From Cytophagales bacterium (GTDB lineage Bacteria; Bacteroidota; Bacteroidia; Cytophagales; 172606-1): DNA of 64,000 bases. Below are positions 6,001 to 61,923 of this stretch, piece by piece; positions within the stretch are counted from its first letter, which is position 1, and the number at the start of each line of letters is the position of its first letter. Position numbers and translations under genes: made by a program. Location: assembly GCA_030448185.1 (NCBI GenBank), contig JAUJNL010000002.1, forward strand, positions 26,925-90,924. Reading direction: 5' to 3'. Under the pieces are notes generated by a model. The model worked only from the letters and a program-made list of their open reading frames with translations, was not told where the DNA came from and did not search any database.

Positions 6001-9000
6001 TGACAACCAGTCTATCAGCGGAAAGAGTAACCAAGCCCGAAGTAGCCACATCAATCGTCTGACTCTTGCCCGAAGACTGATTTACAAGAATACTACCAGT
6101 TCCTTTGTTAATAGGCTCATTAAACGTAAGTACCAGGTTATCCGTGATGGCGGCATCCGGCTTGCCATTGTTTGGGGAAAGGGTAGCCGTAGGGGCAGTT
6201 ACATCCGGCTCTTCCTGAGCCGAAAATTTCCAGTTCTGACTTCCGGGACCACTATTGATACCCAAAAACTTGTTTCCCGCTACGTCTTCAAAGGCTCCCA
6301 GCGGTACAGTTACGTCAATAGTAGCTCTATAGGGGAAATTATTCGGTGGGTTGATCGTGGCCGTTTTCTTATCGGCTGATAAAGCAACGGAGCCATTCAC
6401 AACGTCAATTATCTGACTGCCTCCGTTGGAATAATCAATCCTGATACTTCCGGTGCCTTTTTTAATTTCCTCATTAAAAGTCAGGATCAAGTCCGCATCA
6501 ATGGGCACTCTCTGATCCCCATTACCAGGCCTGAGCGTAGTAACGGTAGGTGCCTGGGTATCCGCGGCAGCTACCGTGGTAAAGCTCCAGGGACTAGCTC
6601 CACTACTGCCAGTCGTACCCACAAAAGCATTATTAGCCAGATCCGTAAAAGCCGTATTGGGAACCGTCACCGAAACGGTAGCTCCATTCGGTAGATCACC
6701 GGTAGGAGCCGGGTCAAAGCTAGCCGTCTTGTTATCAGTTGAGAGATTAACGCTGCTTATAGGAATGGAGGTATTGGTGCTGCCATAACTGACCGTAATA
6801 CTGCCACTGCCTTTCTTTACCGCTTCACTAAAAGTAAGCGAAAGGGTTTGGGTAATAGCTACATTCGTAGCTCCATTATTTGGGGTAAGACTAGCCGTAG
6901 GAACTTGTTTATCCGCGGGAGCTATCGTAGTAAAGCTCCAGGGATTAGCGCCGCTAGCGCCAGTAGTGCCATCAAAAGGATTATTAGCTTCATCCGTAAA
7001 GGCCCCGCTTAGAATGGTGACCGAAACCGTGGCGGCACTGGCAAAGTCCAGCGGATTAATAGTCACCGTTTTTTATCTGCGGAGAAAGAGACCCTGGTAT
7101 CAGCTATCGGAATAGTTTGAGTAGGATTCTTGCCATCAGTAATAGTAATCGAGCCACTGCCTGCCTTCACGGCTTCATCAAAGGCAAGCACCAGGTTAGC
7201 GGTGGTATCCTGATTAATAGCTCCATTACCAGGAGTAAGCGTAGCCTTAGGTTTAATATTATCAGCCGCTACTATCGTAGTAAAGCTCCAGGGGAGTACT
7301 TGGGTTAGCACTGCCTGTACCGGCAAAGCATTGTTAGCCAGATCCGTAAAGGCACCACTAGGAACCGTCACCGAAACGGTTGCTCCATTGGGCAGGTCTC
7401 CGGTAGGAGCCGGATCAAAGCTAGCCGTCTTGTTATCAGTTGAGAGATTAACGCTGCTTATAGGAATGGAGGTATTGGTGCTGCCATAACTGACCGTAAT
7501 ACTGCCACTGCCTTTCTTTACCGCTTCACTAAAAGTAAGCGAAAGGGTTTGGGTAATGGCTACATTCGTAGCCCCATTACCCGGGAGAGATTAACCTTGG
7601 GTGCTTGTTTATCGGCAGGCGCCGCAGTGGTAAAGCTCCAGGGCGCAGCGCCAGAAGCACCCGTAGTTCCGGTAAATTTATTGCCGGCCAAGTCCGTGAA
7701 AGTTCCTTCAGGAATGGTCACCGCAACGGTAACTGAAGCCGCAAAATCAAAGGGATTGATAGTTACCGTCTTTTTATCGGTTGAAAAACTCACTCGGTTA
7801 TCGGTAACGGAAATGCTCTGATAATTAGCTCCGTTGGTAATATTAATATTGCCACTACCAGCTTGGACAGCTTCATCAAAGACAAGCACTAGGTTAGCGG
7901 TAGTATCCTGATTCGTCGTGCCGTTAGCGGGAGTAAGCGTAGTGACTTTCGGAGCTTGGGTATCAGCGGCAGCTGCGGTCGTAAAGCTCCAGGGCCTAGC
8001 ACCACTAGCGCCGGTTGTACCGGCAAAGCATTCGGGGTAGAAGCCAGATCGGTAAAAGCCCCACTCGGAATAGTGACGGCAACGGTAGCCGAGTTGGCAA
8101 AGTCCAGCGGATTAATGGTGACCGTCTTTTTATCGGCCGAGAAACTCACCCGGCTGGCATCGGTAACCGAAATACTTTGCGGAGTAGTCCCATCAGTAAT
8201 GCTGATGTTGCCCGTGCCGGCTTGTATAGCCTCATCAAAAACCAGTACTAAGTTCTCGCTAATGGCTACGTTGGTAGCATTGTGCATGGGAGTCCGGGTA
8301 GTAAGGCCTGGTGCTTGGGTATCGGGAGGCGCAGCGGTGGTAAAGCTCCAGGTTGTGTTGTTATCAATACCAGCAAAAGCGTTGTTGGCCAGATCCGTAA
8401 AGGCTCCACTAGAAATACGCACGGCTACGGGAGTCGCATGGGGCAGATCCGTAGCCGGATCAATCGTAGCCGAAAGCGCATCGGCACTAATGGAGACCGT
8501 ACTGGCCGTAACCGGAATCGGACTTTGGGCCACGTTGTTATAATACAACGTAATCGTACCCGTGCCTTTCTTGATCTTTTCCGAGAAAGTAATTTTTAAG
8601 TTCTGAGTAGTAGCTACACTAGTGGCACCAGTAAGCGGATCAAGGACACTAATCGTAGGCGGTGTGTTATCAGCGGCAGCTACCGTAGTAAAGCTCCAAG
8701 GAGTACCACTACTGCCACCCGTACCATTAAACTTATTCCCGGCTAAATCCTCAAAAGCTGTATTAGGCACGGTGACTGAAACGGTAGCTCCATTAGGGAA
8801 GTCTCCGCTAGGGGTGGGATCAAAACTAGCCGTCCGGTTATCAGCTGAGAGGGTAACGCTGCTTAGCGGAATCGAGTTAGTCGTACTGCCATAACTCACC
8901 GTAATACTGCCACTGCCCTTTCTTACGGGCTCATCAAAGGTAAGACTAAGCGTTTGGCTAATAGCCACTCCAGTAGCATTATGCTGCGGATCTAGCGTAG

Positions 9001-10396
9001 CTTTCGGAGCGGTATTATCAGCACTGCCGGCTACAGTAAAGTTCCAGGCTGTAATGTTGGAAATACCTGCGTAAGCATTGTTATTCAGATCGGTAATGAC
9101 TCCGTTGTCAAGGGTAATATAGACACTGGCTCCGGTGGGAAAGTCTCCACTGCGGTTAATGGTTAAGGTCGAACCTGCTACCTGAATAATGGTATTGTTA
9201 ACCGGAATTACTTCGTTAGTGCCGTTAACATTTAGGGTAATATTGCCGGTATTCCCCTTCCTGACCGGCTCAGAGAACGTAATACTAGGTTTTGTGTTAG
9301 CCGCTACTCCGGTAGCATTGTCACCGGGCGTAAACGAACTAGCCGTAGGCGGCGTATTATCGGCAGCAGCTACCGTAGTAAAACTCCAGGGAGTAGTGCC
9401 TGTTGAGCCCGTAGTCCCGGCAAAAGCATTATTAGCTAAATCCTTGAAAGCGCCACTGGGCACAGTAACTGATATAACAGTAGCATTCGGGAAATCAGCG
9501 GGATTAATCGTAACGGTTTTATTATCGGCTGAAAGGGTAATTGCCGTAGAAGTAGCCGCATTAAAAGTCTGCGTAGTGCTGCCCTGCGTAATGGTGATCG
9601 TTCCCGTGCCCCGCTGCACGGCTTCGTTAAAAGTCAATACTAAGCTCTCGGTAATGGCTACGTTCGTAGCTCCATTAATTGGAGATAGACTGGCCGTTGG
9701 CGCTTGGGTATCAGGAGCGGCTACGGTAAAGTTCCAGGTAGTGGCATTGGTAATGCCGGCAAAGGGATCATTAGTCGCAACGCTTAGAAACGCACCGCTT
9801 TCAATCTGCACATACACAGCCGCTCCCGGAGTGAAATCAGCCGAAGGATTAATGGTGACAGTTGCGCCGTTAATACTAACTATACCTGTATTTGCAGCCG
9901 CTATCGGACTAAGGGCGGTACCATTCTGGTAGATCGTTATGTTTTTATTTGCTGCTGCTTTGACCGGTTCACTGAAGGTAATTTCAAGATTATCACTGGC
10001 GGATGCTGTAGTGGCATTGTCAACTGGTTTGGTGGACGAAATACTGGGTATACCGGCAATATGAAAGCTTCGGTCTGTTTTAACTTCAATGCCGGCAAAG
10101 GATTCATCAGCATGTTTGTCAACCGATGCTCCTTCCTCCACATTGGCATAAAGAGCTATACCCGCCGGAAATGTTTCCGAAGATTTGCCCGTTTTCCCCC
10201 GCGTGTTTTTTGTCGTGATGCCACTCTTACTGACCTGCATTTCCCGGTCAAAAGTCATGGCCAGGTCACCCGCAGTTAGCGGATTGTTATGATCACCAGG
10301 GGATAATTCTTGAGTAGTCTGACTAAGAGAGGTACTTAACCCCAGAAGAATCCAGAAAATATTTGCCAATAGCATTGCTCGTACAGTTAATATCAT
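1..10396 (-). CDS. Giant secreted/cell-surface protein of about 30 tandem bacterial Ig-like (Big_5/SbsA-type) domains. N-terminus with signal peptide at 10396; 3' end runs off the left edge. Reading frame broken at least 5 times.
   Basis: Minus ORFs 7889-10396, 7560-7889, 7063-7371 and 5570-7066 all repeat one 100-110 aa unit, as does an unlisted open minus frame from about 5680 to position 1. My hand translation of 1-540 gives IKPDEFISGQKVSVYIPSSVFLDMADNSFRGINDLTSWDF...PPLVSKLLPDNNKTNVPVS. The unit is D[TN]xxP..L.P.NGATNV.....L.L.F.E.V.KG.G.I.I......I.V.......KT.TINP..DF.....V.V..GAF.D.A.N.F.G.....PW.FTT. The N-terminus MILTVRAMLLANIFWILLGLSTSLSQ looks like a signal peptide. Frame breaks lie near 8025-8045, 7580-7585, 7291/7325 (a compensating pair), 7069-7074 and 5673. 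Confidence 0.85.
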
Positions 10397-21874: not shown

Positions 21875-22251
21875 GGGAGAATATCGTTGCGTTCTTGGTG
21901 GTGGAACGTTTATGAATCGAAGTTACTACTTTATTATCGCAAAATATTGTCGCAAATGTAATGACTGAAAAATCGTTCTCGCAATTGAAATGAAATTAAT
22001 TGTGAATAAAACTTCAACTTCAAAACTTTCTTATATGGTTTTCGCCACTTCTGGCTAAAAAGTCGCTTACATTTAAAATGGGAAGGGAAAAATAAAAGCG
22101 TTTCAAATCGTCTCTACAATCGTTGTACAGCCAAATCGCCCACTCTCTGCTTTTTTTTACTAGCCAGAGAAGTGGTCGATTAGAGATGTTATCAGGGAAG
22201 GTGACTTAAACAACTATTTCTCACATCATCAATAAATGCGCGGAATTTGCA

Positions 22252-23779
22252 CTAATGTTCAAAATGGCGGATTCCGGTGAAGACCATCGACATTTCGTTC
22301 GCATTACAGCAGTCGTTAATGGATTCCTGATCTTTGACTGATCCGCCGGGCTGTACAACGGAGGCTACACCTACCCTTTGGCAATCTCTCCACGCAATCG
22401 GGGAAGGGGAAAGGCATCCGAAGCCATGATCGATCCTTGCAGATCAAAACCAAACGATTTCGCCTTTTTCAATCGCTGCTTCAGGGCATCTACCCGGGGA
22501 CGTCTGCCCAACGCCGCTAGCCAGCAACTGCCCTCTTTCTGCCAGTACAATGGTATTAGACTCTGGTGTGCCCGGCAATCTTAGCGGCAAAAACCAGGCC
22601 CGTTTTTGGCTTCAGACGGGGCTTTTTCGGTGACCGTGCGCAGGTCGGCAATTGTCTCCGTATGGGTATCTTTGTCCTGCCGGATCACCCCGTTCAGCAG
22701 GGTTTTTACCAGCATTTCCGGCAGGCTACGTCTTTCCGCTTCAGCAGAATCCGGTTCTTTCTGGACTTCAGCAGGCTGAGGGCTTCCTCCTGGTAGGAGG
22801 GAGCAATCAGTACTTCGAAGAAAAGTTTATTGAGTTCTTGGGCCGTAGCCAGATCTACCTCTTGATTCGTCACAATTACCCCGCCAAAGGCCGAAACCGG
22901 GTCAGCGGCCAGGGCATTGAGATACGCTTCTTTGGGATCTTTTCCGGTGGCTACCCCGCAAGCGTTGGTGTGCTTAATAATGGCAAATGCCGTATCTCCG
23001 CCAAACTCATCAATCAGCATCACTGCCGCATCCACGTCTACCAAATTATTATAAGATAGTTCCTTGCCGTTCAGCTGCTCAAACATGGCATCCAGGTCAC
23101 CGTGGAACCAGCCTTTCTGATGAGGATTTTCCCCATACCGCAGTTGACGACCGGCCGGAAGGCTCATCTTCAGGGAAGGTATTTCGTTATCTGAATTGAA
23201 ATAATTGAAGATGGCCGAATCATAATGGGAGGTTACGCTGAAGGCATGGGCCGCAAAACGTTTCCGGTCTTCCAGGTCAGTAAAGCCGCCTTTCTCCTGT
23301 AATACTTTTTCCAGGTCACCATACTGATTCTGTGAAGCCACTACCACCACATTGCGGAAGTTTTTGGCTGCCGCCCGAATCAGCGAAATACCACCAATAT
23401 CAATTTTTTCGATGATATCTTCTTCAGAGGCACCGGAGGCAACCGTTGTCTCAAAAGGGTATAAGTCTACGAGTACCAGATCAATAAAGGGAATTTCAAA
23501 ATCTTTGACCTGCGTATTGTCTTCAGGGTCTTCCCGACGGAACAGGATGCCGCCGAAAATTTTGGGGTGCAGCGTCTTCACGCGGCCACCCAGAATTGAA
23601 GGATAACCGGTAACCGTTTCAACGGCAGTAACTGGGATATTCAGCCCGGCAATAAAAGATTGCGTGCCGCCGGTAGAATACAATTGAACGCCTTGCTGGT
23701 GCAGCAGCCGGACAATGGGTTCCAGCCCGTCCTTGTGGTAAACTGAAAGGAGGGCTGAGTGAATTTTGGTAGTGGACAT
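22252..23779 (-). CDS. purH: Bifunctional AICAR formyltransferase / IMP cyclohydrolase, C-terminal third frame-broken
   Basis: ORF 22706-23779 starts [43 protein letters not shown]. The hand-translated end is ...[33 protein letters not shown]-stop at 22252, which is the typical PurH C-terminus. Confidence 0.9.
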
Positions 23780-54025: not shown

Positions 54026-54051
54026 ACGGGCATTGGCGCTGCCATTAGATG

Positions 54052-54090
54052 ATCCCCGGCCGGTTTTCAAAACCCGCCGGGGATTTTTTT
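54052..54090 (+). terminator. Rho-independent terminator; last core feature before the AT-rich segment
   Basis: ATCCCCGGC pairs with GCCGGGGAT, followed by TTTTTTT (54084-54090). Confidence 0.8.
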
Positions 54091-54405
54091 AACTCTGGCA
54101 TTTACTTCTCCTTATGCAACGTTTCACGGCAGAAAGCCCTGCCAGGGCTGCACGTTTAAATTTGACGCAGTAGTCAACCTATGCGGGTAAAAAAATAGAA
54201 ACAGTCTGATGCAACAGGTCTAAGTTTCCCGATTTTGGGCTTATGCTATCTGCCCGCTTAATGGTAAGTTAGTGTGTATTGTACACATTATTGGGTGTAT
54301 TTTTAACAGTCAGTCAGGATTGAAAACAGGGCTTCATTTGAATTTTAACCGCTTTTCAAATAAGTTGTGTGTATTAGTATGTTGTACACAAATAAAAAAA
54401 ACAAT

Positions 54406-54836
54406 ATGAAAACACTTTTTTTAACTCTGGTAACCGTTCTAATTTACTGTTCAGCTACTTGCCAAACGTTGCAAAATGACAAGATAATTGGAGAATGGAC
54501 CGTTAAGAATTCCCAGTTGATTGCTGAAATGGGACTCGATAAAGAACAGTCTCAACAAATGGAAAGCCTAAGGAAAGGATTCATTGGCTCCACATTTGTC
54601 TTTAAAGCTGACCGTATCTTCCAGATTAAGTTTCCTGCTACTGCCAATAACTTTATGAAGGAGCTAGCGATGTTGAATAATAAAAATGGAAACTAAATCC
54701 GAAAGAAAGTTCAGTAGCAATTGGAACAGATAAAGACCAATACTCTTTAATGGGAATTCTTGTAAAAAATCAAGGAGGTAAGACCTATTTTATCCTTGAG
54801 GAGAGCCCTTTCTTATTAGAAGTCACTAAGAAATAA
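54406..54836 (+). CDS. Cassette ORF A: hypothetical small secreted protein (one frame break in an A-run near 54690)
   Basis: MKTLFLTLVTVLIYCSATCQ signal. The body continues after the break as KWKLNPKESSVAIGTDKDQYSLMGILVKNQGGKTYFILEESPFLLEVTKK-stop (54836). Confidence 0.5.
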
Positions 54837-54841
54837 TCTGT

Positions 54842-54926
54842 GGCTAACACCGCGTTCGACCGACCACCAGCCCTGCCAAGCGCATAGCCTCACCGCAATG
54901 GTCATGGCGTCGGGAATGCTAGTTCC
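54842..54926 (+). repeat. attC-like element 1 (starts 6 nt after the ORF A stop; interrupted at its 3' box by the intron)
   Basis: Left box GGCTAAC (54842-54848). The inner stem pairs TTC[GA]CCGAC with GTCGGGAA. Central part GCGCATAGCCTCACCGCAATGG. GTT at 54922-54924. The expected right tail CTGCAACCCAAAAAA follows the intron at about 55733. Confidence 0.45.
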
Positions 54927-55729
54927 GTGTGCGACTCGTTTTCTTGAAAGATCGAAAGATCGGGAAAGAAGCAGCATGGAGACATGCTGACAACTCAAGG
55001 TTCGAACAAGTGCGACTTTTAGTCAACTCTTGTCCCAAACGTGAATTGGAGAAAGCGTTGCCCCCATTGTTAGTCTTGACACGACTAAGGGTGGATGCAG
55101 GGGCAAGAAGCCGGTCACGTTAAACGCTCTAGCGAATCCCGGCAAGCAGGAAGGTACGGACAGCGCAGAGCGAAGCTACTCTGACCCATCGTAAAGCACG
55201 ACAAGCCAACGAGCGTTAACAGGCTTGACCAAAACGGTACAGGATAGGGGGCTGGCGGCGAGGGATCCGACCAGTATTCACGCCCGCAAAACCCAGTGGA
55301 AAGTAGCGTCCTAACCCTTCACAAAACGAACCTTGGGAACGAGGAAAAGCCTTGTGTTCTCTTTCTGGTAGCAGTTTTACCCGAAAGCAGGTGTCAACCG
55401 CATGAACACAAGGAGTAGGATTGTCTATCAAGCTAACGCTTCGGGTAATGCCGAAGATACGCCCACGTAGACACCTTAGGATTGGAAGGTAAACTGGCCG
55501 GTAGGAGTCAACATGTTATGAGCACGGATGCAAATCTGATGTATGAATGGAAAGATTAAACCTGAAAGGGTTTACTTTCAAGCTCCAAAAAGCGAATTTA
55601 CCAAGCCTCTTTCATCGAAGAGGTGCTCCTTGCCAGGGAGCCAATTCAAGGAGGAGCCGGATGAGGGGAAACTATCATGTCCGGTTTTGGAGGACCAGCC
55701 GAAGGGGTAACCCTTCGGCTGAGTCTAAC
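54927..55729 (+). ncRNA. ORF-less group II intron (about 0.8 kb; 5' end is either 54927/54929 or 55010)
   Basis: 5' GUGUGCGAC/GUGCGAC. Domain V at 55654-55687 is exactly 34 nt, GAGCCGGAU-GAGG-GAAA-CUAUC-AU[GU]CCGGUUU, with the AGC triad, a 2-nt bulge and a GNRA loop. Domain VI at 55692-55726 has a perfect stem CAGCCGAAGGG-GUAA-CCCUUCGGCUG and a bulged A at 55722, 7 nt before ...CUAAC. Domain IV is reduced to a stub, CCUUG-13nt-CAAGG. No ORF in the segment has RT motifs. Confidence 0.75.
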
Positions 55730-55784
55730 TACCTGCAACCCAAAAAACGAACACAAATTTCACAATAATTCTAACTGAAATAGT

Positions 55785-56600
55785 ATGGACATAGCTGGGA
55801 AAAATATTTTAATCACAGGTGCTTCTGCTGGAATAGGCAAAGCTTTGGCTGATACGTTGGCGAATGAAGCGGCTGTTTTGGTTTTGGTCGCAAGACGACT
55901 TGAAAAAATTGAAGAAATAAAAGCCAACCTTTTTAAAAATATCCAAACCTAAAAGTTATACTCTTTGGAAAGGATATTTCAATAAGAGAAAACCAAATTG
56001 AAATTTTGGCAGAATTGCACAATCAAAATATTGCATTGGATATGTTAATCAACAATGCGGGTATTGGGGATGAAAGCCTGTTTTTCGAAAGTGAATGGAA
56101 AAAAGCAGAAAACATTATTGACCTGAACAACAAAAAGCGTGATCAGCCTTACCCACCTTTTAGTGCCTCAGTTTGTAAAAAATCCGAAAGGAAAATGTAT
56201 CGTTTTTATAGGCTCGGGCGGAGGTATTGCTTGGATGGCGGGCAGCCTTGATTATTACGCTGCAAAACACTTCATCACAGCAGCGGCAATGATTGTAAGA
56301 GCTGAACTTAAACCAAAAGGCATTCAAGTAAATTTGGTTTGTCCCGGCCCCGTAGATACAGAGTTTGATGCTCTTGCAGGTATTGAAAAAGGAATGAAGG
56401 GCGGACCTTCCCAAAAAACAAGAATTTCATCTGAGGAATGCGCCAATGATATTATAAAAGGCATTAAGCAAAACAAAGCTGCCATATTTCCTGGCAAAAA
56501 ACTAAATAGATTAATGAAATTCTATTTATTGCTTCCGTGGAATATTCGTAGGATTATTTTAGAAAATGATGGCAAGAAATTATATAAAAATCAATTTTAG
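55785..56600 (+). CDS. Cassette ORF B1: short-chain dehydrogenase/reductase, frame broken at least 2 times
   Basis: MDIAGKNILITGASAGIGKALA (TGxxxGIG). Also NNAGIG. The YYAAK motif (YxxxK) is in ORF 56139-56600. Fragments lie at 55785-55950, 56006-56251 and 56139-56600. Confidence 0.75.
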
Positions 56601-57059: not shown

Positions 57060-57224
57060 GGAAGCTAACCAAAAAAGGCAGCTGGTAACATTGACTATAA
57101 GCAATGCGGGTTTGGTGATAAATTGAAAGTGAGTGAACATTAACAAACATATCAGTAGGCTGAAAGTGAAGAGCTTTTTAATCCCGCACTCACGCATCGC
57201 CTTGTACGTTCGTTGGCAGTAAGC
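57060..57224 (+). repeat. attC-like element 2 (longest, AT-rich interior)
   Basis: Left GCTAAC (57064-57069) is complementary, with one G-T pair, to GTTGGC (57212-57217). Internally GTGAGTG pairs with CACTCAC and GCGGG pairs with CCCGC. It ends AGTAAGC + AAAAGAAAAAATG. Confidence 0.35.
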
Positions 57225-57234
57225 AAAAGAAAAA

Positions 57235-57630
57235 ATGAAACGAGGATTGTTACTTGTGTTTCTGCTGATCAGCAAAGCGGCTCTCTCACAAACTCAATTA
57301 GAGATGAACCAGCAGGCACACGCTGCCTATCAGCAGGCAGACAAAGAATTGAATACGGTATACCGTAAGATTTTGTCCTTGTATAAAGAGGATACCGTCT
57401 TCATTGCCAAATTAAAGGAGTCGCAGCGGATATGGGTTAAGTTCCGCGATGCCGAAGTGAAAATGAAGTATCCGGACCGAGAAGCCGGATTTTATGGTTC
57501 TGTTCATCCACTTTGTTGGTCGAACTACTTGGAACAGCTTACTTATCAACGAACCGAAAAACTAAAAGAATGGCTTAAGGGAGCCGAAGAAGGGGATGTA
57601 TGTGCGGGGTCAGCCATGATTAAAGAATGA
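57235..57630 (+). CDS. Cassette ORF C: DUF1311 (LprI lysozyme-inhibitor-like) secreted protein
   Basis: 131 aa. Signal MKRGLLLVFLLISKAALSQ. AYQQADKELNTVYRKIL...SQRIWVKFRDAEVK...GSVHPLCW...TYQRTEKLKEWL fits DUF1311. Confidence 0.7.
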   Translation: MKRGLLLVFLLISKAALSQTQLEMNQQAHAAYQQADKELNTVYRKILSLYKEDTVFIAKLKESQRIWVKFRDAEVKMKYPDREAGFYGSVHPLCWSNYLEQLTYQRTEKLKEWLKGAEEGDVCAGSAMIKE

Positions 57631-57639
57631 AAAGATAAA

Positions 57640-57766
57640 GCCAACTGCCAACACCACGCTGACCGATAACCGGGCCGCTAACCCTAGCCTTACCGCAAAG
57701 CCAACGCTGGAAAAACCCTAGCTTCGAGCCACGCCGTCGGATAGCTTTGCTCCGATATGTGCAACC
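57640..57766 (+). repeat. attC-like element 3
   Basis: GCCAACTGCCAACACCACGCTGACCGATAACCGG shares the AACACC-N9-CG-NNAACC pattern. It ends ATGTGCAACC + AAATAGAAAAATG. Confidence 0.35.
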
Positions 57767-57776
57767 AAATAGAAAA

Positions 57777-58133
57777 ATGACAAATCACGTATTCTTTTAC
57801 CTTGGACTTTCGATGATTATGATGCATGAGATGGACGCAATCAGGTGTAAAGAATGGAGAATCTTCCCCGGAATGTCATTTTTAAATGACAATATGGGCT
57901 TTAAAGTTTTTATGTTCGCTCATGTCCCACTATACTACTATATCTTTAGCAGTCTTGATGGCGAAAATAATGAAAGCTTTATTTATGGATTTAGCGTTTT
58001 TCTTGTCATTCATCTCGGTCTGCATTTACTGTTTTTAATGCATAAAAAGAATGAGTTCAAAGATTGGATTTCTTGGACAATTATTGGTGGAACTGGAGTG
58101 TGCGGATTACTCGAAATAGTATTAACAAAATAA
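57777..58133 (+). CDS. Cassette ORF D: small 4-TM membrane protein (DUF6713-like?)
   Basis: MTNHVFFYLGLSMIMMHEMDAIRCKEWRIFPG..., hydrophobic throughout. The family call is tentative. Confidence 0.5.
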   Translation: MTNHVFFYLGLSMIMMHEMDAIRCKEWRIFPGMSFLNDNMGFKVFMFAHVPLYYYIFSSLDGENNESFIYGFSVFLVIHLGLHLLFLMHKKNEFKDWISWTIIGGTGVCGLLEIVLTK

Positions 58134-58137
58134 TGAC

Positions 58138-58220
58138 GGCTGCACACAACACCATACCCGCCGACAACCGGTGCGCCTCATCGCACGGCCGGCGCTGGGT
58201 AGTTTTGATACATTAGCACC
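58138..58220 (+). repeat. attC-like element 4 (best attC-like fold)
   Basis: CACAAC (58145-58150), then 6 nt, then CCCGCCG (58157-58163). Next GTGCG-CCTCAT-CGCAC, then CGGCG[CT]GGG (58190-58199), then 2 nt, then GTTTTG (58202-58207). This is an R''/L''...L'/R'-like layout with extrahelical bases. Confidence 0.45.
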
Positions 58221-58328
58221 AATAGAAAAAATATAAAGAAAACGTAACAGCGACTAGTAGAAGTACAATTGGATAATCACTATTTTAAGTATTCTTTACC
58301 AAAAAACACTCTTTAAGGATAAACTCAG

Positions 58329-58919: not shown

Positions 58920-58983
58920 TCCTTCTGGTGAAGGAAACTTTACGGTAAATCTTCATATAAAAGACATGACTAAACGAAGTAAT

Positions 58984-59084
58984 GGTGCTAACACCCCGCT
59001 GAAACGCCAACCACCCCTCCCTACCGCAGGGTTATCAGCGCAACGGACCTGGCTGCGGCAATGTTTGTTTCGTTATGCCCAACC
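58984..59084 (+). repeat. attC-like element 5
   Basis: TGCTAAC (58986-58992) + ACCCCGCTGAAACGCCAACC. The right side is GTTTC-GTTATGC (59072-59078) + CCAACC. GCTAAC pairs with GTTATGC with one bulged base. Confidence 0.4.
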
Positions 59085-59094
59085 GAGAGAAATT

Positions 59095-59484
59095 ATGTTT
59101 GATGATGAAAAGACAGAGTGGATAAAGAGAGAGTTTAAGGTAGAGGATTTTAAAGTACCTTATAGCGATTACGAAGAAAATTGAAAGTAAATTCATTATC
59201 AAGGATGATCGGCATATGCACTTTAATTATTGGAATGAGCACTTAAAAGGAGTTAAATTGGTCAAGGAGACTCTTCAATCCGCAGATGAGTTTTACCCTC
59301 TATAACCGAAGAAACGGTTAATTATTGGTTTATTATGATAGAAGGTTTCTCTTCCGGACATAGACACCGGCTGATCGATGCAAAACCATACCCAGCCCAT
59401 ACGTTTTTTCGCTGGCTTGGCACACCCTGGATGTATGTAGTGGACAAGCGATACAACTGGTTGATACTAATTGAAATTAACTAA
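59095..59484 (+). CDS. Cassette ORF F: hypothetical protein reconstructed across 2 frame breaks
   Basis: MFDDEKTEWIKREFKVEDFKVPYSDYEE / FIIKDDRHMHFNYWNEHLKGVKLVKETLQSADEFYPL / ITEETVNYWFIMIEGFSSGHRHRLIDAKPYPAHTFFRWLGTPWMYVVDKRYNWLILIEIN-stop. Three consecutive frames each look protein-like. Confidence 0.35.
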
Positions 59485-59533
59485 TGACCGGAAGAGAATT
59501 TATTATGCCAGACAAGGTATAGAAGAAAAAATA

Positions 59534-59644
59534 AAGGCCGGTGCTTAACACCGCCCGCAAACGACAACCGACCTTCCTCAACGCATTGCTCCACCGCAAT
59601 GGGATGGGTTTACGTGGGTTCCTGTTCCGTTAGCCGTTAGCAGG
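59534..59644 (+). repeat. attC-like element 6
   Basis: AAGGCCGGTGCTTAAC (GCTTAAC at 59543-59549 fits RYYYAAC). CCCGCAAAC pairs with GTTTA-CG-T-GGG, with bulges. The central hairpin pairs CATTGC with GCAATG. The right boxes are GTTAGCC (59629-59635) and GTTAGCA. Confidence 0.45.
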
Positions 59645-59841
59645 AAAAACGTCTCCTAACGGATAGAGAAGTTAGTAAAAGTCAGACAAGCCGGGTTTGC
59701 AGCAACAGATGAAGGGTTGCCAGCCGAAACCGAGCCGGAAGCAGTTGACAAAGCCCTAAGTCAACGATTTAAAACAAAAGATGAGTTGCGGCCAGTACAA
59801 TTGGTGAAAAGAGACAACGAAGCCCCGAAATTGAAGGATCA

Positions 59842-59870
59842 ATAAAGACAAAGGCTGAATGGCTAACACA
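59842..59870 (+). repeat. attC-like element 7: left end only (truncated)
   Basis: ATAAAGACAAAGGCTGAATGGCTAACAC is 25/27 identical to the start of element 8 (61770-61797). The next ORF starts at 59894. Confidence 0.5.
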
Positions 59871-59893
59871 AAATCACTGCTCGATATTATTCT

Positions 59894-61770
59894 ATGAGAC
59901 AATATTTGATACTGTTAATTCTGCTTATAAAGTTCTCCAATGCGTTATGCCAGGCCGAAAAGATAGATTCCATATTCAGTGACTGGAGATATCTTGATAG
60001 ACCAGGTGGTGTAATTGCAGTACTTAAAGACGGAGAAGTGCTTTACAAAAAAGCTTTTGGAGCATCAGATATCCAAAGGAGAAGCCCAAATTCAATCGGT
60101 ACACCTTTTGAATTAGCTTCCATAGCCAAACAATTTACAGCCACCTGTATTGCCCTTCTTGAGGAACAGGGTAAGCTTTCTAAAGAGGATGACATCAAAA
60201 TTTACTATCCTCAATTCCAGTTTTCAGAAAAAATCACCATAAAGAATCTGCTTGACCATACCAGTGGAATAAGAGAAGCGTATGTGCTAACCATCCTGTC
60301 GGGAAAGGTCAATTTAAAAGGACAGGTGCCGAAACGATATCAAACCAAGGAGCATCTGTTAAAAGTCCTGTCTAAGGAAAAAGACTTGAACTTTAAGACA
60401 GGTGATGAGCTCGACTTTCGCATTTTCTCATAATGCAACCTACCAAAGGGTTGAAATAGGGTTAATTCTTCAAATAGTTTTTGAACATCATGTCTAAAAC
60501 GCGATATTCAAAAACTAAAAATACCTTTATGTGCGCCGTTTAAGCCTGGTTTTCTGATTTTCACAAATGCGAAAGTCGAGATGAGATGGTGTACACAAAC
60601 ATCAACTATATTCTATTGGGTGACATTGCAGAAAAAGTGAGTGGTATGAAACTAAGACAATTTGCTGATAGTGCTATATTCAGGCCCTTGAAAATGCATA
60701 ACACTTTTTCAACGATCACGAAATCGGCACCAAAACGGTAGGCTATTATTATACCGGAAAAACATTTAAAAAAGGCATTCAGAAGGAGGCATTGTAGAGA
60801 TCACAATTTAATAAGCACCATTGATGATTTAATTCTTTGGAGCAATAATTTTTATGCGAACAAACTTGGAAAAAAGATCCCCTGTTCTTTGACAAGTTAA
60901 CTACAAGCAGCAGGCTAACTAATGGCGAAGCTACGGGATACGGGTATGGCCTGTTTACTTCAACCTATAAAGGGTTTGATCTGGTGTATCATGGGGGAGA
61001 TAATGGGATCCACACCTCCATACTATTGACAGTACCAGATAAAAGAATAGCGGTGGTTTGTCTTGCCAACTCGTCAAGATATAACGCCCTGGAGAGTAAG
61101 CATACAAAATCGTTGATATATTTTGGAGGATTCTTTGCCTAAATCAAAACCTTTGGAGCCTTTTAGCTATATCAATTTGGATAAAGAACAGCTTTCTTCT
61201 AAAGTTGGGCTTTACTATTTGATTGCAAAGAATAATCTCGGGCAATTGCGAAAGGTAACGTTAGAAGATGAAAGCCTGTTCATCAGTGATCATTATAGTG
61301 CAAAAGGGCTGAAGCTACATGCGGTCAGTGAGAATTATTTTGTCGCAAAGAATCCATCAGATGAATATTTACACATTTACTTTTTATCGGATTCAACCTC
61401 CGGGCATGCGCTCCGGGAGGTATACCTGGATAAAGTAGATCTGAAATTTTCGGCATACAAACCCGTTCAGGTTCAACCTGATGACTACAAAGGCACATAC
61501 GTCAACGAAAGCACCGGGGCAAGGATTAAAGTGAGTACCAGCAAAGGCGGAATCAAGGCAAGAAAGGGAATAATTAGAATACCCATGACTGTTTTCAAAG
61601 CGGATGTGTTTTATGCAACACAGAATAATGCATTGTTTGTCTTTGAAAGAAACAAAGTTAATACCGTTATTGGTTTAAAAATAAATGCAGAGGATTTTAG
61701 AAATCTCAGGTTGAATAAAATAAATCACCTATTAAAAAGAGGCGACGAAGGCCGTTGCAAGAAGCATTGA
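59894..61770 (+). pseudogene. Cassette ORF H: beta-lactamase-family serine hydrolase with C-terminal extension. Interrupted by a MITE and further frame breaks.
   Basis: SIAKQFTA (SxxK) lies in ORF 59894-60433. After removing 60410-60585 the frame continues TGDEMVYTNINYILLGDIAEKVSGMKLRQFADSAIFRPLKMHNTFF (YxN). There are further breaks at 60700-61120. The C-terminal domain is ORF 61123-61770. Confidence 0.75.
60410..60580. mobile_element. 171-bp MITE with 16-bp perfect terminal inverted repeats and 5-bp target-site duplication
   Basis: The left TIR CTCGACTTTCGCATTT (60410-60425) is the exact reverse complement of the right TIR AAATGCGAAAGTCGAG (60565-60580). ATGAG flanks both ends (60405-60409 and 60581-60585). 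Excision restores the hydrolase frame. There is no internal ORF. Confidence 0.85.
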
Positions 61771-61890
61771 TAAAGACAAAGGCCGAACGGCTAACATCAA
61801 ACAGTCTAATAACTGGGGCTCCTCCAGCGCATAGTCAAATTGCAACACCACCAATTTACGGCTGCTCATGCTACGTTGGCGGTCATTGTA
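61771..61890 (+). repeat. attC-like element 8
   Basis: TAAAGACAAAGGCCGAACGGCTAAC (GGCTAAC at 61789-61795). GAACGGCTAAC is largely complementary to GTTGGCGGTC (61875-61884). Internal small hairpins are CTGGGG-CTC-CTCCAG and AAATTG-9nt-CAATTT. Confidence 0.4.
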
Positions 61891-61923
61891 TAGACCCCCC
61901 GCAAATATTAAACAGACAAGAGT

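Follow-up and report, generated by a model that had tools for sequence, protein, structure and literature searches.

What is the structured, open reading frame (ORF)-less element that interrupts an intergenic repeat near 55 kb in a 64,000-nt stretch of a Cytophagales bacterium chromosome (contig JAUJNL010000002.1; "the window" below means this whole stretch), and is it still capable of movement? A first-pass annotation, made from the letters alone, had proposed an ORF-less group II intron starting at position 54927, understood within the framework of the group IIC introns that target integron attC sites. Homology and predicted structure identify the element as a genuine group II intron of the chloroplast-like (CL)/IIB lineage whose ORF has been deleted; the same comparisons place its boundaries and point to the origin of the deletion. 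With good confidence, we read it as a CL/IIB intron that resides in an intergenic repeat, that lost its intron-encoded protein (IEP) through a deletion of about 1.55 kb, and that is most likely immobile but possibly spliceable.

The intron was recognized by two Rfam models, which gave the sole Rfam matches across the 64-kb window: RF00029 (Intron_gpII) at 55652-55729 with 48.3 bits (gathering threshold 40, E-value 2e-6), and the domain V model RF04357 with 56.8 bits (gathering threshold 53, E-value 2.9e-10). The hallmarks of group II introns are present, namely a 34-nt domain V, a bulged A in domain VI, a 5' GUGCG and a 3' ...AAC. Domains V and VI had been described correctly in the first-pass annotation, including the AGC triad, the 2-nt bulge and the GAAA loop of the former and the 11-bp stem, GUAA loop, bulged A at 55722 and CUAAC end of the latter; all of these can be seen in the sequence. 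The annotation had also proposed a search with Rfam group II models. In that search the domain V and VI models scored above gathering, but the Rfam domain I-IV (group-II-D1D4) families gave no match to the intron, even in E-value mode, so the identity of its 5' two-thirds had to rest on homologues. The entire intron RNA folded to -287 kcal/mol compared with -242 +/- 5 kcal/mol for shuffled sequences (z -9.15).

When plasmids were searched with distant blastn, the matches were cyanobacterial group II introns. The best match is a 2.4-kb intron in Fischerella NIES-4106 plasmid2, which interrupts a trsK-like gene and carries an ORF for a 553-aa "RNA-directed DNA polymerase"; after removal of this ORF, it aligned with the window intron from the first base to the last. 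Relatives were then retrieved with a 24-base motif common to the two introns, consisting of one block within domain II (AGGUGUCAACCGCA, 55388-55401) and one in J2/3 (AGGAUUGUCU, 55416-55425). This yielded four genome loci (Pelatocladus, two in Ktedonobacter racemifer, and an Acidobacteriota metagenome-assembled genome) and 23 metagenome loci, i.e. 27 loci beyond Fischerella and about 28 relatives in total; their sources are cyanobacteria, Chloroflexota, Acidobacteriota and soil metagenomes. Over the parts that can be aligned, each shares 67-72% identity with the window intron. The J2/3 motif is common to the window and 28/28 retrieved relatives, which were collected by that motif. A full-length alignment to at least 22 relatives, together with consensus and single-sequence folds, gave a six-domain architecture; the secondary structure that the first-pass annotation had asked for could thereby be built for domains I-III as well. 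The intron and its ribozyme domains are as follows:

54929-55729, + strand: group II intron, 801 nt, chloroplast-like/IIB, ORF-deleted (Rfam matches, end-to-end alignment with IEP-bearing introns, fold z -9.15)
54935-55343, + strand: domain I, about 410 nt, closed by a stem of 54935-42 with 55336-43 (RNAalifold on ten non-redundant relatives, projected onto the window)
55041-55046 and 55276-55281, + strand: alpha (GUGAAU) and alpha' (AUUCAC), complementary 6-mers; the relatives are complementary at the matching positions (by inspection)
55350-55413, + strand: domain II, with a 10-bp closing stem (fold z of the domain II-III segment -3.6)
55422-55473, + strand: domain III, folded with the domain II-III segment
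55654-55687, + strand: domain V, 34 nt, with the AGC triad at 55655-57, an AU bulge at 55677-78, a GAAA loop, a lower helix of 9 bp and an upper helix of 5 bp
55692-55726, + strand: domain VI, a perfect 11-bp stem with a GUAA loop and the branch-point A at 55722, 7 nt before the 3' end

Among the findings that, according to the first-pass annotation, could overturn it was that the hairpins resembling domains V and VI come from an unrelated structured RNA. A related concern is that the ORF-less state reflects an assembly collapse, and the assembly is indeed rich in indel errors. Both notions are barely credible, as the homology spans domains I-VI and extends beyond the two hairpins, and as the deletion of about 1.55 kb is flanked by decayed remnants of the ORF, unlike the 1-nt errors of this assembly.

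The class of the intron was read mainly from these relatives, as evidence of its own IEP in the window is limited to ORF remnants. All relatives with both ends have 1.7-1.9 kb between the search motif and domain V, and therefore all of them encode the protein. Their ORF specifies an RT-X-En (reverse transcriptase, X and endonuclease domains) protein of about 550 aa; the window copy is the only ORF-less one in the set and also the most divergent. The Fischerella IEP matched T.el4h, the maturase/reverse transcriptase of a Thermosynechococcus IIB intron (PDB 6ME0), at 1.1e-108, compared with 6e-34 for LtrA (IIA) and 3.5e-30 for the GsI-IIC reverse transcriptase. IIC introns have a CGC triad, a short domain I and no second exon-binding site, EBS2 (PMC7923331). 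Because of the IEP match of the relatives, the AGC triad, the length of domain I (about 410 nt) and the existence of EBS2, we assign the intron, from its sequence relationships, to the chloroplast-like IIB lineage and not to IIC. The IIC or IIC-attC reading had drawn on the position of the intron, which adjoins a repeat whose ends recall attC core sites. This reading has next to no probability: the triad is AGC and not CGC, the ribozyme minus domain IV measures about 620 nt and has both EBS2 and EBS3, homology is confined to CL/IIB introns, and the insertion is in the sense orientation and in a different box of the repeat. Judged by the IEP comparison and the ribozyme alignments, it is already refuted. 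The IEP-bearing relatives share with the window copy the ribozyme family (domains I-VI), the domain II and J2/3 motifs, the 5' GUGCGA, the 3' UAAC and the positions of EBS1, EBS2 and EBS3; they differ in having an intact RT-X-En ORF and target sites other than that of the window.

Where, then, does the intron begin and end? The 5' end reads GUGCGAC at 54929 and the 3' terminus ...CUAAC at 55729. Relatives begin with GUGCGA, GUGCGG or GUGUGA at the column of 54929 (22/22 aligned relatives), none of them with two extra bases, and their 3' ends (...UUAGUUUAAC) aligned with that of the window (...UGAGUCUAAC). The host repeat provided a second line of evidence. A leave-one-out model, R2, was built from six other copies of the repeat, with the interrupted copy excluded. 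It recovers this copy at an E-value of 4.4e-7 (model positions 4-106), and the alignment halts precisely at 54928 (...UUCCGU). In this model the consensus across the insertion point, UuCGU^UaGC, includes the two bases 54927-54928. Thirdly, an uninterrupted element is present in another Bacteroidota genome (L030:7712-7837, where L030 is contig_32 of ERZ25039504; GCGTTACCTGCAACC). It reads CGTTACCTGCAACC across the junction, and 14 of its bases (CGT|TACCTGCAACC) are identical to the window flanks joined at 54928/55730. Because the ends of the relatives, the leave-one-out model and the uninterrupted L030 element agree, we set the intron at 54929-55729, and the exon flanks predicted to be ligated upon its removal (54929/55729) are ...GUUCCGU|UACCUGCAACC.

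The start at 54927 in the first-pass annotation, with GUGUGCGAC as the 5' end, thus takes in two exon bases. Similarly, the intron had been placed 2 nt past a GTT, but the relevant GTT is the one that the insertion splits (CCGT^TACC), not the upstream GTTCC. The expectation that the tail of the element resumes directly after the intron was borne out, as 55730-55760 matches the repeat model. We considered two alternative 5' ends. A start at 54927 would give five contiguous EBS1 pairs (GGGAU/GUUCC), but this is the same helix in a shifted register; it is also contradicted by the 5' ends of the relatives, the register of the second intron-binding site (IBS2), the leave-one-out model and the L030 element, all of which indicate that GU is exonic. 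A second GTGCGAC at 55011, which might have represented another 5' end or a twintron, aligns within domain I of all relatives.

The exon-binding sites were located by covariation among the relatives (loci numbered from L001). One hairpin loop of domain I is, in relatives, complementary to the six exon bases right before the same intron. The EBS1/IBS1 pairs are GGUAUU/AGUAUC in L001, the same loop with AAUAUC in L003, GUAUGC/GCAUAC in L005 and L011, and UGUAGC/GUUACA in L006, and the loop covaries with IBS1 in L001/L003, L004/L005/L011, L006 and L007/L021. A second site, about 60 nt upstream of EBS1, is complementary to exon positions -14 to -9 (EBS2/IBS2: AAGUCA/UGACUU in L001, GCGCAC/GUGCGU in L004, CGGCAA/UUGCCG in L006). 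The EBS3 column fits the first base of the 3' exon in 7/8 introns (G with C, A with U). The corresponding sites in the window are:

55260-55265, + strand: EBS1 (GAGGGA) in the loop 55256-55270, by positional homology with the covarying loop of the relatives
55195-55200, + strand: EBS2 (AGCACG), by positional homology with the covarying EBS2 of the relatives
55301, + strand: EBS3 (A), which pairs with IBS3 (U55730), 1/1
54923-54928, + strand: IBS1 (UUCCGU, -6 to -1), 5/6 pairing with EBS1, two of these G-U, with a mismatch at -2 (by inspection)
54915-54920, + strand: IBS2 (AAUGCU, -14 to -9), in the register of L001, L003, L004 and L006, 4/6 pairing with EBS2 (by inspection)

The GGAAC at about 55335, which had been suggested as EBS1, is invariant in the relatives and contributes the 3' strand of the stem that closes domain I.

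How did the intron lose its protein? Domain IV had been described as a 23-nt stub. It is in fact a closed domain of about 178 nt that holds two remnants of the IEP gene:

55474-55651, + strand: domain IV, about 178 nt, without an ORF (closed domain, -58.5 kcal/mol, z -3.65)
55539-55609, + strand: remnant of the IEP N-terminus, with ATG at 55539, MYEWKD, a stop at 55557-59, and then a frameshifted "..FKLQK..IY.." region
55613-55640, + strand: remnant of the IEP C-terminus and 3' base of domain IV, aligning with the last 33-40 nt before domain V in the relatives

Domain IV opens like the DIVa subdomain of the relatives, followed by ATG TAT GAA TGG (MYEW, compare MYEWNKLPW... in Fischerella) and a TAA at codon 7 (MYEWKD*). 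The N-terminal remnant corresponds to the opening 79-91 nt of the IEP ORFs in L001, L022 and L007, with 88-90% identity over 31-33 nt; the frameshifted stretch past the stop is 88-90% identical to the RT0-coding region that specifies "..VFKLQKRIY..". Homology ends at about 55609 and restarts at about 55613-55619, and therefore about 1.55 kb of the DIVb subdomain is missing. By this alignment, the ORF-less state is the product of a deletion of about 1.55 kb inside DIVb. The earlier statement that no reverse transcriptase ORF exists was correct: there is no ORF larger than 73 aa within the intron, and no reverse transcriptase-like sequence, IEP or further intron fragment was found anywhere in the 64-kb window. 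Bacterial group II introns without an ORF have been catalogued as a category (PMC2882425, PMC8919778).

The intron interrupts one of seven related repeats of about 125 nt, all on the + strand and found only within 54.8-61.9 kb of the window. L030 has a similar array with three further members (7712-7837, 8375-8498 and 9837-9967; E-values 1e-10 to 1e-12). The members in the window are:

54829-54928, + strand: 5' part of repeat A, the 5' exon (leave-one-out model R2)
55730-55760, + strand: 3' part of repeat A, the 3' exon, with IBS3 as T55730 (positions 105-135 of model R1)
57067-57238, + strand: repeat B (repeat sequence model, as for C, D, E and G)
57630-57785, + strand: repeat C
58128-58246, + strand: repeat D
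58974-59098, + strand: repeat E
59527-59662, + strand: repeat F, the closest paralogue of A, with the unoccupied site ...GTTCCGT^TAGCC
61773-61908, + strand: repeat G

The repeat consensus reads GCTAACACC...CCGACAACC...YACCGCA...GCAATGG...CGGGTAGnTTTGTTCCGTTAGC...GCAAC...A-rich, and then ATG. In repeat F, the 3' core is tandemly duplicated at 59629-59642 (GTTAGCC GTTAGCA).

The first-pass annotation had called the host element an attC-like stem-loop. If the repeats were genuine, diverged attC sites of a cluster of attC sites that has no integron integrase (CALIN), the intron would disrupt the R' core at GT^T, mirroring IIC-attC insertion at TTGT/T. The ends of the consensus, GCTAAC...CGTTAGC, do recall the R''/R' cores of attC sites, the AAC being invariant and the GTT present in 5/7 window elements, and the surrounding region, lower in G+C, is an array of small accessory ORFs in the same orientation; moreover, a sense CL1/IIB1 intron directly after an attC site is on record (UHB.I2, PMC7923331). 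This possibility is nevertheless very improbable. Single elements folded no better as DNA than shuffled sequences on either strand (z about +0.4 to -2.2), and RNAalifold found 0 consensus pairs among ten family members. The R box (terminal TAAC/GTTA) was 65% paired, but its own partners did no better than shuffled ones and it showed no covariation. In a crude scan for R''/R' arm duplexes, element A ranked 11th of 324 + strand candidates, with no signal from the array. A tblastn search with IntI1 as the query detected no integrase or tyrosine recombinase in either the 64-kb window or the +/-10 kb around the L030 array. Whereas attC sites conserve structure rather than sequence, conservation here is of primary sequence and extends over the full element length. 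In L030, the DUF6713 ORF keeps its upstream element without a downstream one, and integrons are very rare in Bacteroidetes (PMC9024848). The "attC-like" label for the host repeat is unsupported. The sense orientation noted earlier stands, as the intron lies on the + strand with the flanking ORFs. The elements end 10-30 nt ahead of start codons, and TAnnTTTG, which we take to be the Bacteroides -7 promoter motif, occurs at the same aligned position in 3/10 of them. Judging from these sequence features, the repeats are possibly a promoter/leader module or a non-integron cassette system. A sigma-70 promoter and terminator scan around the intron gave no excess over shuffled sequences, with a model that is ill-suited to Bacteroidota. 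The literature on rAID-type Bacteroidales arrays offered no motif with which the repeats could be compared.

We propose the following history for the CL/IIB intron. An IEP-encoding parent would have reverse-spliced into the sense strand of the intergenic repeat in a Bacteroidota chromosome, between ...UUCCGU and UACCUGC..., presumably by means of EBS1, EBS2 and EBS3. A later deletion of about 1.55 kb in DIVb left the first 25-30 or so codons and the last 10 or so codons of the ORF, while the six ribozyme domains and the catalytic motifs were kept; as it encodes no protein, the copy cannot move autonomously. The 17 ORF-less TeI3 introns of Thermosynechococcus elongatus have a matching architecture, and they are spliced and mobilized by the IEPs of sister introns (PMC2882425). 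By analogy with TeI3, for which this was demonstrated by experiment, efficient splicing in vivo might occur only with a related IEP made elsewhere in the genome. Most likely, the copy is non-autonomous, possibly dead, and immobile rather than actively spreading. This view of its present state follows from the imperfect IBS/EBS pairing, the domain V mismatch, its being alone in the array and the lack of near-identical public copies. An exact 22-mer spanning domains V and VI gave 0 matches in genome contigs and 0 in metagenome contigs, patterns for domain V and for the ORF-less gap gave 0 matches in viral contigs, and neither a near-identical copy nor a close relative of the intron was found in the genome and metagenome collections searched.

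Possible signs of decay are a mispaired GxA (55665x55674) within domain V's upper helix, at a position paired in every relative; a restructured sub-domain of domain I (55068-55099); departures from invariant sites; and the imperfect IBS pairing. Several observations weigh against the reading of an immobile, decaying copy, or at least weaken it. The helices of domains II, III, IV and VI are clean, with sequences unlike those of the relatives; clean, diverged helices fit a recent deletion or ongoing selection on the RNA, so "dead relic" would overstate the case. The intron departs at 31/192 and 5/47 positions that are invariant among the relatives, and these departures, as well as the restructured sub-domain, may reflect either lineage divergence or decay. 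It keeps 84/102 consensus pairs compared with 92-100/102 in the relatives, although it is the most isolated lineage and parts of it are misaligned; being so isolated, its deviation counts do not separate divergence from decay. Single-nucleotide details are unreliable in an assembly with frequent indel errors. Finally, a helper IEP or more copies may exist elsewhere in the genome, beyond the 64 kb that are visible.

Could the intron instead be active but non-autonomous, driven in trans by an IEP encoded elsewhere and homing to the 3' core of the repeat, YCGT^TAGC? ORF-less CL introns can be highly mobile (PMC2882425), the ribozyme helices appear intact, and the insertion lies within the most conserved 3' motif of the repeat, with IBS1 UUCCGU and IBS3 U recurring in element F and in L030:8375-8498. 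We regard this as unlikely, as only 1/7 elements in the array and 0/3 in the sister array are occupied, element F being empty despite its perfect IBS1 and IBS3; pairing with the intron's own exons is imperfect (IBS1 5/6, IBS2 4/6); no near-identical copy turned up in the genome and metagenome collections searched; and the relatives home to unrelated, apparently coding targets. A further idea, for which we hold out little hope, is that a CL/IIB lineage in Bacteroidota has specialized on the YCGT^TAGC core of inter-cassette repeats, inserting in the sense orientation and being mobilized in trans. If true, group II introns would have come to exploit the junctions of cassette arrays a second time, independently, here with a sense-strand insertion that mirrors IIC-attC homing at TTGT/T, and the intron could fuse or create cassettes.

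The array that holds the repeats has lower G+C, and its small co-oriented accessory ORFs encode a fragmented short-chain dehydrogenase/reductase (SDR), an anthrone-oxygenase-like protein, LprI, DUF6713, a beta-lactamase-family protein, AraC and a glyoxalase. The window also encodes a type IX secretion system (T9SS) sorting domain and a DUF4494 protein, from which the host was judged to be a Bacteroidota chromosome. After the DUF4494 gene, a strong GC-rich hairpin followed by a T run (54034-54091, + strand) is probably an intrinsic terminator at the left edge of the array; it also gave a match to NsiR1 of 21 bits, below gathering. The DUF6713 unit (57728-58132) is 82.5% identical over 405 nt to L030:9910-10314, the arrays being otherwise non-syntenic. 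This shared unit reaches from within the upstream element to the stop codon; in L030, the ORF has no element behind it. Exact-protein look-ups for an intron-less allele led, for the DUF4494 protein, to a 1.2-kb contig only, and two flanking ORFs and the 79-aa fragment P0070 were unrecorded. Separately, a 100% identical copy of P0070 was seen on an NCBI contig.

In purH (22100-23779, - strand), the first 357 aa lie in one ORF and the C-terminal 160 or so aa are spread across three frames within 500 bp, which suggests many assembly indel errors rather than true pseudogenes. The SDR gene downstream of the intron (55785-56600, + strand) likewise occupies three frames (55785-55952, 56006-56251 and 56139-56600), and in view of the purH result this split may be an assembly artefact rather than a sign of a pseudogene. 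The beta-lactamase-family (serine hydrolase) gene (59894-61770, + strand) appears fragmented into 59894-60433, 60586-60741 and 61123-61770. A 41-nt direct repeat, 83% identical, is found at 59833-59873 and 61761-61801; the latter copy covers the end of this ORF and the start of repeat G (GGCTAACA), and the former lies just upstream of the start of the gene. The arrangement resembles a scar left by recombination at a cassette boundary.

These results extend the set of naturally ORF-deleted CL group II introns by a divergent example from a Bacteroidota chromosome, which shares about 70% identity with its nearest relatives. The resemblance of its flanks to attC core motifs is insufficient to claim a link between the intron and integrons. 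The host array is the more interesting by-product, with a sequence-conserved repeat of about 125 nt before small accessory ORFs in at least two Bacteroidota genomes.

Among known systems, the TeI3 introns (Mohr et al. 2010, PMC2882425) provide the closest parallel in architecture: they share a CL IIB ribozyme, a loss of about 1.5 kb from DIVb, remnants of both the N- and the C-terminal ends of the ORF with a disrupted frame and, for the window intron by analogy, dependence on an IEP in trans. They differ in being present in 17 copies whose EBS and IBS match well and whose driver IEPs are known from the same genome, whereas the window intron is a single copy with imperfect IBS pairing and no IEP in 64 kb, in a Bacteroidota host and about 70% identical to its nearest relatives. 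UHB.I2 (Sonbol and Siam 2021, PMC7923331) is of the same IIB/CL class, in the cassette orientation, and is located at the 3' end of a recombination-site-like element between ORFs. It is full length with an En-minus IEP, and its neighbours are attC sites called by IntegronFinder; the IEP of the window intron is deleted, and its host repeat fails the structural attC tests run here. An intron of this class in sense after an attC site, as well as truncated IIB introns in a CALIN, had thus already been reported (PMC7923331). With the IIC-attC introns (S.ma.I2 and relatives; PMC3001079), the window intron has in common that it is inserted within a GT^T, in a core-like motif at the terminus of an inter-cassette element. 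Those class C introns have a small ribozyme with a CGC triad and lack EBS2; they carry an IEP, depend on a stem-loop, and insert into the bottom strand, antisense to the cassettes, at TTGT/T of R'' (PMC3001079, PMC7923331), whereas the window intron occupies the sense strand, at CCGT^TA and close to the 3' end of its element.

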